32,000 nucleotides of DNA from Candidatus Omnitrophota bacterium (GTDB lineage: Bacteria > Omnitrophota > Gorgyraeia > Zapsychrales > JANLHA01). Numbering within the stretch: position 1 is the stretch's first letter; each line of letters opens with the position of its first letter. The DNA lies in NCBI GenBank assembly GCA_963662715.1, contig OY759724.1:3328634-3360633 (forward strand). The letters are read 5' to 3'. Both the position numbers and the translations under genes were made by a program. This document shows, one piece after another, positions 3,582-9,203 of the stretch. The notes below the pieces were generated by a model. The model was not told where the DNA came from. It did no database searches and saw nothing but the letters and a program-made list of their open reading frames with translations.

Positions 3582-5102
3582 TTAAGATAGTTTGGGAGCT
3601 TTGCCAATCATATAAAAATCCGAAGGCTTTGTCTTGTCATAAGATCCCTCCAGCACACCCTCCACCCCGTCCAACAATTCATCAATATGCACATACGCCC
3701 CCTTTTTCCCTGTAAAAACTTCACTGACATGAAACGGTTGCGTCATAAAGTTCAACAGACGTTGGGCACGGCCGTAGACCATACGGTCTTCCTTGTTTAA
3801 TTCCTCGACCCCGATAACGGCGACAATTCTTTTCAGTCCGTTATATTTATTAAAATGCTGAATACACTGCTGGGCGATATTAAAATGCCGCTCCCCGATG
3901 ACAAAAGGATCCAGGTTCCCGCAGGAACTCTGCAAAGGATCAATAGCCGGATACATCCCGCGCTGGACCAATTCACGGGACAAGACAATAGACCCGTCCA
4001 AATAACTAAAAATGGCGACAACAGCCGGGTCGGTCATATCGTCGGCCGGAACGTAAACAGCCTGCAAGGCCGTTACCGAACCGCCCCCCGCCACGGAACG
4101 GATCCGTTCCTGTACACCGCTTACCTCGGAAGCCAAGGTGGGCTGATATCCCGTTTCCGCGGGAACCCGGCCTAACAGCGTTGAAACCTCCTGCCCCCCC
4201 TGGATAAAACGGTAAAGATTATCCATAAACAACAACACGTCCTTATTTTTGGACTGAAGGTACTCGGCCAGGGCAATGCCCGTGTTAACGACTTCCGCCC
4301 GTGCCCCGGGAGGCTGGTCCATCTGCCCGTAGGCCAGCATGACATTATTCAACAAACCGCTCTCGAGCAATTCATAATAAAGCTCGTTCCCTTCCCTGAT
4401 GCGCTCCCCGATACCCGCAAAAACACAGGCCCCGCCGTGTTCCTTAACAATATTATTAATCAGTTCCAGGATAACAACCGTTTTCCCGCATCCGGCCCCG
4501 CCGATGATTCCGGTCTTGCTTCCTTTGACGAGCGGATATAACAAATCTATAAACTTGATTCCGGTTTCCAGAACCTGCGGTTTCGCCGCTTCCTTCTGCG
4601 TTAAATCAAAACCCATCGCCTGCTTTAAGACCCTGACAGGGGCAGGAGGCGCGTCAATAGGGCCTTTTTTATCGATCGGATTGCCGACCGCGTCCATAAT
4701 CCGCCCGAAACAGGCATCGCCGATAGGGACGGAAATGGGCTGGAAAGTATTATAACAGGGCTGGTTGAGCTGCAGATCAAGCGTATCCATCAATGAAACA
4801 GTACGGACAAGCTTTTTCCCCAAATGTTCCGCCGTCTGCAGAACGATCCTTTTTTTCTGAAAATTCCAGGCTTCAATAACATCATAAAGGGCCGGGATGT
4901 CCTCAGGATTATCAAAAGACACATCAACGACCGGGCCCTGGACAGCGACAACCCGGCCCATCCCCCGGCGTTTTGTTGACCGGCCTGGAGGGGCATCCTT
5001 TCCGGCATCTTCTCCCTGACTGTCCGCCTGCTCCGACGGGTCTTGCGGGGGGGACAATTCTTCCGGCTCTTTCTCTTCTGAAGATGCATCGTGTTCGCTC
5101 AC
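3582..5102 (-). CDS. atpD: F-type ATPase beta (catalytic) subunit with a ~46-aa acidic, Pro/Ser-rich N-terminal extension
   Basis: 506 aa. Motifs match the canonical beta subunit: P-loop [31 protein letters not shown], Walker [29 protein letters not shown], and [20 protein letters not shown]. The DELSEED-loop equivalent is GVEELNKED. Confidence 0.92.
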
Positions 5103-5130
5103 ATGATTCTCCTTGGAATAAACACCAAAA

Positions 5131-5982
5131 TTAACGTTTAGTCATCATACGGGAGGTGAAAATTTCCCGCATACCCTTATCAATATCTCCCTTCTTGGCC
5201 TTTGTAAAAGCTGCCGCGATCCCTTTTTTGTCCTTTTTCATTTTCTGCACGCTTGCCTCCAGCTGCTGTGATTGAGCGGCCGCTTCCGAAATGGACGTGT
5301 CATGAAGAACTTCGTAAATACGGCAGACAAGCCACATGTCAGCTAAATAACCGATAATATCAACCGGATCGGATTCCAAGATGACCGATTCAATAGCGTC
5401 CACAAATTCGGCTTGTTTAATCAACAACTCGTCGCAGGGCAGAAGCTTAACGCTGCGCGGCTTCTGCAGGTTAAAAGTCTTGGACCAGGGATAAACGACG
5501 ATGACTTTTCCCAAACGGTCTTCCATGACTTCCTGAATCAGAAAATCCTTTATGCGGATAGCGATCTCGTAAAGGCCGACCTCTTCCAGATCCGTAAAGG
5601 TCTTCATATCAGGCTGGACTTTAGCCAATTTTTCCGCGCCTTTCTTTCCTACGATGATAAGCTCCCCCTGGGGATGGCGTTCTTTTTCCGCCATGATGGC
5701 CCGTACGGTCTTGGCGTTCAAATCCCCCATGAACCCCGCTTCGGAGGTAATACCCAGCACCCCGACTTTGGGATTGTCATTGGACACGAGCGGATGCCGG
5801 ACGGTAGCGAGACTGATCATGCGGAAAAATTCAACGAAAGACTCCCCGAAACGGGCAAACCGGTCCTTCCTGCTGGCCAGTTCATGAAATTTCGTGTCCG
5901 CGACATCTTTAAGGACCTGAATGATCTCAACCAGTTCTGTAATGTCCTCTAAATCGCTCTTGATTTTATTCGCCTTGCCCAT
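5131..5982 (-). CDS. atpG: F-type ATPase gamma-like central-stalk subunit (divergent)
   Basis: 283 aa (canonical ~290). It has long N- and C-terminal helices ([26 protein letters not shown]...; ...[19 protein letters not shown]...[11 protein letters not shown]). [18 protein letters not shown] resembles the canonical gamma motif ITSDRGLCGGFN. It sits immediately upstream of beta, as in canonical operons. Confidence 0.6.
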
Positions 5983-5994
5983 AGCCTTTCATCC

Positions 5995-7238: not shown

Positions 7239-7308
7239 AACACAACTCCTTTTTCATCATTGTATTCAGAAAGCACGGATAGTCCGGCTATAACATGTTT
7301 CCTCTCGG

Positions 7309-7641
7309 CTAAAGGTGATGGACTTCATCATCCGAATCCGTAAGGATATCTTGATCTTTCTTCCCTTTCTTTGGACGGAAGCGTTCAATTTCTTCAACAA
7401 GCACAATGCAATCGTTGGCGAAAAACTTAAGAATTCCGAACTTGATAGGCACGGCTTCCCGCCAATTGATGATGATATTACTTTGATTTAAGATTCCCAG
7501 GACCGGATAATGATACGGCAATAATTCGTATTCTCCGGTGTCCCCGGAGAAAAAAACACTTTCAACCTCTCCCTGGTAAAGCAGAGCCTCGGGTGTCATA
7601 ATGGAAATTTTAAATGTCGGACGGTAAGTCGTGCCGGCCAT
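7309..7641 (-). CDS. atpC: F-type ATPase epsilon-like subunit: N-terminal beta-sandwich only, with the C-terminal helical hairpin replaced by a short charged tail
   Basis: 110 aa. ISIMTPEALLYQGEVESVFFSGDTGEYELLPYHYPVLGIL matches the epsilon N-domain pattern (..V.TPE......V..V.....GE.GILP.H.P....L). The last ~25 aa (RPKKGKKDQDILTDSDDEVHHL) are charged and too short for the canonical two-helix domain. Confidence 0.65.
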   Translation of the reverse strand: MAGTTYRPTFKISIMTPEALLYQGEVESVFFSGDTGEYELLPYHYPVLGILNQSNIIINWREAVPIKFGILKFFANDCIVLVEEIERFRPKKGKKDQDILTDSDDEVHHL

Positions 7642-7658
7642 AAGCCCAAGGAATCTCC

Positions 7659-9203
7659 TTATTCTTTTTTCTTTGATGTGGCGCGGTCTAAAACATCAAC
7701 GCCCACATTACTGCTGTCCTCATCTGATTCAAACGACTCTTTCGGCCGTTTCGCGATGAGCTCTTCCAAATACTCGGCCAAAAGGTCATCCAGGATTTTC
7801 TTCATCTCGTCATCCAGATCCCGTTTCGCACGCATTGTTTTTAAAAGTTCTTCATTCTTCCTCTTCACGTAGTCATAAATATCATCCTGAAAAGCGATAA
7901 CTTCTTCAATCATCATCTCATGTAAAACACGCTTATTGTAGGCATAAAGGATAATCACCAAAGACTCCATCGGAACAGGTTTCCCGGGGCCCTGTTTCAG
8001 CAACTCTGTCAAAATGCTCCCGGTCTTTAACTGCTGTTCAGCTTCTTCAGATTGACCGGATGTTTTCAACTTCGAGACACGCAAAACTTCCCGGTACTGC
8101 AGATACTCCAAACGTAAAGGTCCGCTTAACTTCTTGATGATAGGCCACTGGACTTTACTTCCGACCCGGGAAACAGAAAGCCCCAGGTCAACCGCCGGTT
8201 TTTGTCCTTCACCAAAAAGCGGAGCGCTGACCATGATTTGCCCGTCCGTCATAGAGACCAAGTTCGACTGAACGTATCCGGTAAGGTCTCCCTCGAGTGT
8301 TTCGACAATCGGCAAATGCGTCATAGACCCGCCGCCATGGTCTTTCGACAAATATGCTGCTCTTTCAACGAGTTTGGAATGTAGATAGAAAATATCCCCC
8401 GGGTAGGAATCACGGCCCGGAGCGCGTTCCAACAGCAGGGAAATTTCCCGATAGGCCCAGGCATGTTTCGTAAAGTCATCAAAAACGACGAATACATCTT
8501 TCCCCTGGTTCATAAAATATTCTCCGATCGCACAGGCAATGTAGGGGGCGAGGTACAACTGTCCCGGAGGCGCCGCTGCCGTAGCGGAAATAATACATGT
8601 ATACTTAAAACAATCTTTATCTAAAAAAAGCTGAACGACCTTCCCCAAGGAAGATTGGGCCTTACCGATACAGCAATAAACGCAAATAACCCCCGTATGT
8701 CTTTGGTTAATAATCGCATCGGTGCCGATCGTCGTTTTCCCGGTCATTTTATCTCCGAGGATCAACTCCCTCTGCCCAAAACCTATCGGGATCATGGAGT
8801 CAATAACTTTGATCCCCGTTTCAAGTGTTTTTTCCAAGATTCCACGCTGTAAGATGGAAGGGGCATCAATGAAAATCTGAGTATTCTTATTCGGTTTAAG
8901 CGGACCCAGCCCATCCATCGGTTCTCCCAGGGGATTAATGATGCGTCCGATGTAATTATCACCCACAGGAGTCGTAAAAGGCTCCAAAGTCGCCTTGGCT
9001 TTATCCCCGGTTTTTAACTGAGATTGCTGCCGGATGATGAGAACCTGGGCTTCATCCTCAGAAAAACCGATAATAACACCTAACGTGCCATATCCGAAAC
9101 GGATGACCTGACCGTTAATACAGTTCTTAAACCCTTCCACAATAACGATACAGCCCCGAATGACACGGATGGTTCCTTCTTCAGAGTACTTTAAATCACC
9201 CAT
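7659..9203 (-). CDS. atpA: F-type ATPase alpha subunit (N-terminally short, with a ~30-aa acidic C-terminal extension)
   Basis: 514 aa. Motifs: P-loop GDKMTGKTTIGTDAIINQ, DDFTKHAWAYREISLLLERAPGRDSYPGDIFYLHSKLVERAA, LPIVETLEGDLTGYVQSNLVSMTDGQI, and GLSVSRVGSKVQ (Arg-finger region). ATG with AAGGGA 7 nt upstream. Confidence 0.92.
   Translation of the reverse strand: MGDLKYSEEGTIRVIRGCIVIVEGFKNCINGQVIRFGYGTLGVIIGFSEDEAQVLIIRQQSQLKTGDKAKATLEPFTTPVGDNYIGRIINPLGEPMDGLGPLKPNKNTQIFIDAPSILQRGILEKTLETGIKVIDSMIPIGFGQRELILGDKMTGKTTIGTDAIINQRHTGVICVYCCIGKAQSSLGKVVQLFLDKDCFKYTCIISATAAAPPGQLYLAPYIACAIGEYFMNQGKDVFVVFDDFTKHAWAYREISLLLERAPGRDSYPGDIFYLHSKLVERAAYLSKDHGGGSMTHLPIVETLEGDLTGYVQSNLVSMTDGQIMVSAPLFGEGQKPAVDLGLSVSRVGSKVQWPIIKKLSGPLRLEYLQYREVLRVSKLKTSGQSEEAEQQLKTGSILTELLKQGPGKPVPMESLVIILYAYNKRVLHEMMIEEVIAFQDDIYDYVKRKNEELLKTMRAKRDLDDEMKKILDDLLAEYLEELIAKRPKESFESDEDSSNVGVDVLDRATSKKKE

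Follow-up and report, generated by a model that had tools for sequence, protein, structure and literature searches.

An F-type ATPase gene cluster lacking a local gene for subunit a, within a conserved repeat-protein and pilus-like locus of Omnitrophota

We analyzed a 32,000-nucleotide (nt) stretch of DNA from an Omnitrophota bacterium (contig OY759724.1 of assembly GCA_963662715.1), hereafter the window, which carries seven adjacent genes for an F-type ATPase. The genes lie on the minus strand and run from position 9203 to position 3582 in the order alpha, epsilon, c, c', b/delta, gamma, beta, with intergenic gaps of 12–70 nt (Table 1). Six of the seven proteins are identified by Pfam and NCBIfam models with E-values of 1e-7 to 1e-70, far beyond chance; ATP-synt_ab, DE_N, C, OSCP and ATP-synt are all matched, and the remaining protein, c', has no Pfam match and was recognized by profile comparison with c (hereafter c1, with c' as c2). 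Coordinates, Pfam matches and the c/c' comparison thus agree with an earlier note on this DNA, made from the letters alone, which had claimed that all F1Fo components except subunit a are encoded side by side. The canonical bacterial operon is atpIBEFHAGDC and the N-ATPase operon runs beta-epsilon-Q-R-a-c-b-alpha-gamma; as the note had also stated, the order of the genes here departs from both. The seven genes sit midway in one conserved, co-directional, operon-like block, in which a giant repeat-protein gene and a gene that we call p460 lie upstream and genes for a GspE/PilB-type assembly ATPase, starting 33 nt downstream of beta, and a GspF/PilC platform protein lie downstream.

The catalytic head retains what canonical enzymes need for an alpha3beta3 assembly, namely P-loops, a catalytic Glu in beta and an Arg finger in alpha, and both subunits pass the cut-offs of their NCBIfam models (TIGR00962 and TIGR01039). 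Alpha keeps the P-loop GDKMTGKT and the Arg-finger motif SVSRVGS, and beta keeps the catalytic Glu motif along with LLFMDN, GYQPTLA and VPADDMTDP. All of these motifs are at least 95% conserved across 54–61 species, so the intact catalytic motifs that had been noted in the window are a property of about 60 species. The DELSEED loop of beta reads EELxKED. Alpha is shortened by some 20–22 residues at its N-terminus, as alignments to solved alphas in the PDB begin between its residues 4 and 8 and between residues 22 and 31 of the solved chains; its start at 9203 is the first start codon past an in-frame stop, and there is no earlier in-frame start. In characterized enzymes the lost residues form the helix to which the delta N-terminal domain attaches. 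At the other end alpha carries an extension of about 35 amino acids (aa). The longest open reading frame (ORF) for beta begins with a GTG codon, which places about 47 additional residues, acidic and rich in proline, ahead of an internal Met (4964–5102); this extension is variable and unconserved in relatives, and its start codon and translation are uncertain.

The rotor is complete. Gamma aligns end to end with E. coli gamma and its termini are conserved. In c1 we find the hairpin with a membrane carboxylate and a polar loop that canonical c subunits require: E57 corresponds to D61 of E. coli c, and R37-N38-P39 to R41-Q42-P43. The Glu is kept in 59 of 61 species and the R-N-P loop in all 61. 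Conservation of this rotor-contact loop and of the gamma termini points to a functional assembly of gamma, epsilon and ring. The second hairpin protein, c2, is a divergent paralog of c1 by profile-profile comparison (hhalign probability 97.6%, E 2.8e-12, 73 aligned columns, end to end); it keeps its Glu in 48 of 56 species, P40 in 56 of 56 and Q47 in 54 of 56. As judged from their sequences, head and rotor look functional.

The canonical complement of full-length delta and full-length epsilon is, by comparison, incomplete. A profile of the stalk family matches Bacillus PS3 b (residues 11–164) over positions 5–163 and E. coli delta (residues 99–172; E 1.3e-13) over positions 164–237 in searches against the PDB, giving a protein in which one transmembrane (TM) helix and a b-like coiled coil are joined to the delta C-terminal domain; a delta N-terminal domain is lacking, and the TM helix is poorly conserved. 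The name b/delta that the gene had been given therefore holds for b and for only the C-terminal domain of delta. Loss of the alpha N-terminal tail fits a stalk of this kind. The epsilon call likewise stands, limited to an N-terminal beta-sandwich: the family has a median length of 104 aa, against 139 aa in E. coli, and no conserved C-terminal helical hairpin. In canonical enzymes the C-terminal helices of epsilon inhibit ATP hydrolysis. From the predicted domain composition of these two proteins, the stator is reduced and the regulatory brake on hydrolysis is gone.

Subunit a is missing from the locus. Six-frame searches of the window with E. coli AtpB and AtpI returned nothing better than E 0.5, and among 74 related loci, taken with flanks of up to 10 kb, E. 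coli AtpB matched nothing better than E 0.25. In a hydropathy scan of the window and these loci, GspF is the sole coding-strand protein with at least three TM helices. Together the empty searches and the single polytopic protein confirm, for the window and for all 74 related loci, the claim that no a-subunit gene lies in or next to the cluster. No a-like gene occurs at the downstream end of the block, which is visible in one locus (L076) where a convergent gene follows, or upstream of the short repeat-protein genes of two further species (L057, L031), where the region encodes secreted proteins and no membrane protein.

Published annotations bear on the remainder of the genome. Two Omnitrophota metagenome-assembled genomes (MAGs), Aceula lacicola and A. 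meridiana, both 92% complete, are listed with alpha, epsilon, c, b, gamma and beta, no a, and a full V-type set including subunits I and K; the A. meridiana item labeled AtpB is 1.6 kb long and is by identity a beta, not an a (Williams et al., 2021; PMC8542988, Supplementary Table 5). The contigs concerned are two of our loci (L037 and L033), and the A. lacicola gene coordinates coincide with the ORFs of L037. In all of their Omnitrophota, the same authors attribute ATP synthesis to the V-type enzyme (Williams et al., 2021; PMC8542988). A 94.6%-complete Velamenicoccia MAG (genome 221) is listed, in the accessible part of its annotation, with KEGG Orthology (KO) entries for alpha and beta and with V-type I/K, and without K02108 (Seymour et al., 2023; PMC10066038). 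In a 2026 preprint on 176 complete Omnitrophota genomes, the alpha/beta KOs are assigned in 125 and the gamma KO in 30. The earlier note had considered that the cluster might be an ordinary housekeeping F-ATPase, its genes the only atp genes of the host; what is found is a published V-type set alongside an alpha and a beta that are both divergent.

The whole block is under purifying selection and its order does not vary. We surveyed one genome per GTDB species with the gamma alignment, which returned 68 loci from as many species, down to 48% gamma identity. Record titles that name a lineage are all Omnitrophota or ‘uncultured Planctomycetales’, and the closest beta homologs, at 67–89% identity, come nearly all from Omnitrophota/Omnitrophica where a source is named among the matches listed. 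In 39 loci we found all members of a string of 11 genes (repeat-protein tail, p460, alpha, epsilon, c1, c2, b/delta, gamma, beta, GspE, GspF), and each shorter locus is a fragment of the same string; p460 precedes alpha and GspE follows beta in every locus long enough to tell. No locus shows an alternative gene order, even at 48% gamma identity, so the survey of relatives that had been proposed finds the same arrangement throughout. Relative to the closest relatives, nonsynonymous divergence (dN) is 0.025–0.08 for c1, c2, gamma, alpha and beta and 0.15–0.24 for p460, b/delta, GspE and GspF. The ratio to synonymous divergence (dN/dS) is at most 0.09 where computable, and about 0.02 for c2 against the closest relatives, values limited by a dS that is saturated against distant loci and near saturation even against the closest ones. 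Farther downstream, relatives carry a Peptidase_MA_2 gene (most loci), genes for a GspG-like protein and minor pseudopilins, T2SSK, PilM-PilN, PilO and a TPR protein. The Peptidase_MA_2 protein (E 1.6e-16; L001:15054-15872 and homologs) is encoded between GspF and the GspG-like pseudopilin and is absent in L076. Across the block, counts of terminator-like and promoter-like sites are within shuffle expectation, and the window contains no Rfam match.

Table 1. Genes of the block in the window, listed in the direction of transcription
Feature	Coordinates	Strand	Remarks
Giant repeat-protein gene, 3' part	10722..32000	-	ORF continues past the window end
p460, conserved, no known family	9307..10689	-	460 aa, directly upstream of alpha
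F1 alpha	7659..9203	-	Pfam ATP-synt_ab 1.8e-68; TIGR00962 518.9 bits, cut-off 484
epsilon, N-terminal beta-sandwich only	7309..7641	-	ATP-synt_DE_N 2.5e-10
c subunit (c1), two-helix hairpin with ion-binding carboxylate	7017..7238	-	ATP-synt_C 1.5e-07
c' (c2), divergent c paralog	6771..6998	-	hhalign against c1
b/delta peripheral-stalk protein, 252 aa	5995..6753	-	OSCP 4.3e-13 and ATP-synt_B 8.7e-06
gamma, full length	5131..5982	-	Pfam ATP-synt 3.2e-26, 5-276 against 3-280 of 285
F1 beta	3582..5102	-	ATP-synt_ab 8.8e-70; TIGR01039 534.4 bits, cut-off 463
GspE/PilB-type assembly ATPase	1332..3548	-	T2SSE 6.1e-133, MshEN 1.6e-15, PilZ 9.7e-13
GspF/PilC platform protein	86..1297	-	T2SSF 9.8e-59

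The surroundings of the ATPase genes are part of the conserved unit, and the earlier note, whose account of gene content, order and local lack of a holds, had missed this context of repeat protein, p460 and type II secretion system/type IV pilus (T2SS/T4P) genes. The giant gene encodes a secreted protein with about 520 exact 13-residue (39-nt) G-I-N-W repeats of the pattern x-G-[IV]-N-W-x-D-..-S-D, followed by a conserved non-repeat C-terminal tail of about 270 aa that ends in ...VVVKTWFE. Repeats and tail are conserved upstream of p460 in every locus that extends far enough. Homologs of the giant protein have a signal peptide at the N-terminus, and their lengths lie between 868 aa and more than 7000 aa. 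Complete short homologs of 868 aa (L057:2970-5576) and 1324 aa (L031:966-4940) have N-terminal globular domains and the same tail; as they contain far fewer INW repeats, repeat number varies about tenfold or more between species around a fixed flanking operon. Upstream of one short gene lie two tandem paralogous ORFs (L057:86-2960) that look secreted and that, by eye and from motifs only, we take to be FGE/SUMF1-like. The GC skew over the giant gene is about -0.5, and multi-kb blocks of its repeats recur, such that assembly collapse or expansion cannot be judged. Modeled with AlphaFold2 (AF2) from alignments of repeats within the window, the 13-residue repeats form an all-beta structure with one strand per repeat, at a confidence (predicted local distance difference test, pLDDT, 67; one of five models) too weak for the model to count as evidence. 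Hydrophobic ORFs on the plus strand opposite the giant gene (11533–31998, up to 84 predicted TM helices) were rejected as antisense artefacts of the repeats and could be miscalled as membrane proteins.

The p460 protein has no Pfam or NCBIfam family above cut-off, and a fold search against the PDB gave no match with E < 0.01. Its AF2 model (mean pLDDT 89) shows a signal or anchor helix, two modules each of a beta-sandwich and a helical bundle, a long stalk helix and a C-terminal TM helix followed by a short cytoplasmic tail. The TM helix and the stalk helix before it are the best-conserved part: W406 and F415 are invariant, K/R407 is kept in 51 of 51 sequences, F419, T420 and W427 in 50, R430 in 49 and H423 in 45. 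In some loci only 4–13 nt separate p460 from alpha. A profile search of 1.84 billion representatives clustered at 50% returned 945 relatives at E <= 0.001, a large, unannotated family with the TM motif ‘TTWK..F..FT..HF..W..RS’ (examples are P0236, P0257, P0278, P0313, P0347, P0352, P0242 and P0234). The module occurs free or at the C-terminus of secreted proteins of 1200–2000 aa, one of which has INW/IDW-type repeats, and some p460-like modules precede a cytoplasmic GGDEF domain; two fused members are labeled as Deltaproteobacteria MAGs. On the strength of these fusions to large secreted proteins or to GGDEF, p460 is probably a membrane anchor or transducer of the repeat protein.

On the other side of the ATPase genes, the GspE/PilB protein carries an N-terminal MshEN and a C-terminal PilZ domain. 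Both are modules that bind cyclic di-GMP, and their presence suggests control of the apparatus by this messenger. In one relative (L062) the GspE homolog is 581 aa long, about 150 aa shorter, and probably lacks PilZ.

Alpha and beta are of the F-type and at the same time divergent. They score 519 and 534 bits against the atpA and atpD models, where the E. coli controls reach 869 and 875, and the accessory subunits all fall below their NCBIfam cut-offs (gamma 75 against 194 for TIGR01146, epsilon 40 against 67, c 22 against 44, delta 36 against 57.5, b 29 against 65.5). In the PDB both alpha and beta have canonical F1 subunits as their best matches, at 396–470 bits for beta, and the G1 beta of Mycoplasma mobile scores 337.6. 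Alpha has been placed with the Mollicutes type 2/3 ATPases (Seymour et al., 2023; PMC10066038). Compared by hidden Markov model (HMM) score rather than by a tree, using models of MMOB1660/1670 and MSC_0619/0618, alpha reaches 398.5 and 304.4 for type 2 and type 3 (cut-offs 600 and 520) and beta 412 and 392 (cut-offs 850 and 570). E. coli alpha scores 412 and 312 and E. coli beta 495 and 427 on the same models. Membership in type 2/3 was accordingly rejected, the scores being below the cut-offs and no higher than the controls, and this HMM control does not bear out the particular affinity to type 2/3 put forward by Seymour et al. Assignment to the N-ATPases was rejected as well: the gene order differs, alpha, beta, gamma and b score 474, 465, 18 and 37 against cut-offs of 750, 752, 282 and 225 (TIGR03324, TIGR03305, TIGR03323, TIGR03321), and the NCBIfam scan of the cluster proteins gave no match to AtpQ or AtpR. 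The FliI/SctN models of flagellar and type III secretion export ATPases give about 180–188 bits for alpha and beta, with cut-offs near 600, and the cluster has two distinct subunits, so that this candidate too was set aside. We read the cluster, from these scores, as its own divergent F-type lineage.

The locus type is not new. An F-type cluster beside PilB/PilC genes has been published before (Williams et al., 2021, in the supplement; Seymour et al., 2023), which removes the novelty claimed for the gene order as such. Seymour et al. describe a ‘symbiotic / non-respiratory’ F-type ATPase whose genes adjoin those of a type-4a pilus (T4aP); they count 56 of 111 Velamenicoccia species with this arrangement, and on 57 of 66 contigs the distance is within 10 kb (PMC10066038); the window holds the same locus type, with alpha and beta within 10 kb of T4P/T2SS genes. 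The main texts and searchable supplements of the two studies contain no mention of the missing a, the c paralog or the stalk that joins b to the delta C-terminal domain, of the lost alpha N-tail and epsilon C-domain, or of p460 and the fixed slot between the 13-residue-repeat protein and GspE.

Taking these observations together, we propose, at roughly even confidence, that the cluster encodes a second, specialized, ATP-hydrolyzing rotary F-type ATPase that belongs to the neighboring repeat-protein and T4P-like envelope machine and is not the ATP synthase of the cell. The cell's ATP would be made by the V-type enzyme, whose coexistence with the cluster we take from published annotation. We infer hydrolysis as the direction of catalysis: an F1 whose epsilon has no inhibitory helices would hydrolyze ATP, and hydrolysis would turn gamma-epsilon and the c-ring. 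The work would then be passed, within the membrane, to a partner in the envelope machine and not to an ion channel, with GspF and the highly conserved p460 TM helix as the best candidates. An analogy is offered by the type 2 and type 3 F1-like ATPases of Mollicutes, which are thought to energize surface machinery. The earlier note had offered two options, an a supplied in trans and a ring coupled to another partner, and the evidence leans toward the second.

Several points weigh against this proposal. The tie between the ATPase and p460, GspF and the repeat protein is one of synteny. The genome-wide lack of a comes from the published annotation of incomplete MAGs, and gamma, epsilon, c and b of the cluster fall below standard thresholds, so that an equally divergent, unlinked a may have been overlooked. 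The near-invariant carboxylate and R-N-P loop of c1 are, moreover, expected of an ion-exchanging ring, and some a-like partner may therefore exist. These points lead to a conventional ion-translocating F1Fo enzyme, pump or synthase, whose a is encoded elsewhere and is possibly very divergent, with the pilus linkage reflecting co-regulation or local energization. Split atp operons are established in several bacterial lineages, and the cluster's divergent gamma already escapes annotation pipelines. Some Omnitrophota (Kappaea frigidicola; genome 58) do have a canonical a-c-b-delta-alpha-gamma-beta operon, according to the accessible part of the published data. We nevertheless consider a conventional enzyme unlikely. 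Neither the curated Aceula MAGs nor the accessible annotation of genome 221 include an a, and the same genomes carry a complete V-type enzyme. The stator is reduced, and the TM helix of b, which normally packs against a, is poorly conserved. Over 68 species the order is frozen within the pilus and repeat-protein block, into which a was never recruited.

Another possibility is that a non-homologous partner from the block, be it the p460 TM helix, c2 or GspF, replaces a and faces the carboxylates of the ring. With such a partner, the turning of the ring would remain linked to the binding and release of ions, or to a contact of the ratchet type, and force or a signal would be sent to the periplasmic stalk and the repeat fiber. 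The p460 helix offers the conserved basic positions described above (K/R407, H423, R430) and invariant aromatics, and its gene always lies directly before alpha, a place that in the Mollicutes type 2/3 clusters is likewise taken by a protein with a signal peptide and a C-terminal TM helix. The p460-like modules with a cytoplasmic GGDEF output domain suggest transmembrane signaling, and loss of the Glu of c2 in 8 of 56 species is what one would expect of a protomer that is not an ordinary part of the ring. All of this is conservation and position, and two half-channels are impossible from a single TM helix; we therefore hold such a replacement to be rather improbable. The p460 family, with its 945 members, is also far larger than the 68 species with the cluster, which points to a more general role of the helix. 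A decaying or repurposed remnant, in which F1 is soluble or loosely anchored and c, c' and b are mere membrane anchors that do not rotate, would agree with the reduced stator contacts and with the Mollicutes type 3 enzyme, whose F1-like domain is partly cytoplasmic and labile (PMC12994834). Seven genes that stay intact in about 60 species, with low dN and saturated dS, together with the conserved c1 R-N-P loop and gamma termini, speak against decay, and given these selection data we regard a remnant as very improbable.

The specialized hydrolytic ATPase that we favor can be taken a step further, to a version that we offer as speculative and doubtful: an F-type rotor whose c/c' ring bears carboxylates would work without any a, its ATP-driven rotation being read out by the p460 TM helix or by GspF. 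It would power a new machine spanning the envelope, by which the fiber of 13-residue repeats and a pilus-like filament are moved, tensioned or extruded. Such a motor would be the diderm equivalent of those for gliding and MIB-MIP in Mycoplasma, and one that still uses a c-ring. We infer such a coupling partner from gene order and conserved residues.

F-type ATPases are textbook ion-coupled machines. To our knowledge, the only well-known versions outside bioenergetics are the F1-like motors of Mollicutes, which lost the whole of Fo. The enzyme described here keeps a c-ring and its carboxylate while its operon has no channel subunit and its stator is trimmed. Were a truly absent, it would show what a c-ring can do without an ion channel. 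In that case the cluster would also document the recruitment of rotary ATPases as mechanical motors, and an intermediate between synthase and motor would become directly testable. Omnitrophota are ultra-small and probably predatory or parasitic, and their giant-protein and secretion loci would, on the same condition, be assigned a power source.

The cluster can be set beside several known systems. With canonical F1Fo it shares homologous alpha, beta, gamma, epsilon N-domain, c and b, the catalytic residues, the c carboxylate and the polar loop; it differs in having no a, no AtpI and no separate delta, in its two c paralogs and in its gene order. Like the N-ATPases, it is a second F-type operon of non-canonical order with epsilon in second place, the membrane subunits in the middle and then b, and no separate delta; its stalk is collinear with the N-ATPase b model TIGR03321 (residues 56–241 against 52–244 of 246, E 3.7e-09), but N-ATPases have a subunit a as well as AtpQ and AtpR. 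The mycobacterial b-delta fusion carries a complete delta. It too unites b and delta in one polypeptide and is matched by the stalk profile (PDB 7jg5 chain d, E 9.6e-09), yet it is 445 aa long, whereas the stalk of the window has 252 aa and the C-terminal domain of delta only. In the FliI-FliJ-FliH complex an F1-related ATPase likewise works within a secretion apparatus, there as a homo-hexamer of one ATPase and without a c-ring; FliH resembles a b-delta fusion.

The likeness to the Mollicutes type 2/3 systems is one of organization. Each is a second F-type-derived ATPase beside a housekeeping enzyme, has no a among its clustered genes and is tied to large surface proteins, and each has a protein with a signal peptide and a C-terminal TM helix encoded just before alpha (PMC12994834). 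The MIB-MIP surface system depends on the type 3 ATPase, and gliding is driven by type 2 (PMC12994834). Both are proposed to use the hydrolysis of ATP for work across the membrane; for the Omnitrophota cluster, the tie to surface proteins is its strict synteny with the repeat protein, p460 and the T2SS/T4P genes. The Mollicutes clusters have no c, b or delta and possess instead a 12-TM protein and a small cytoplasmic protein (PMC12994834), whereas the cluster of the window has c, c' and b/delta, has no 12-TM protein, and stands in a diderm host with a T4P/T2SS-like apparatus.

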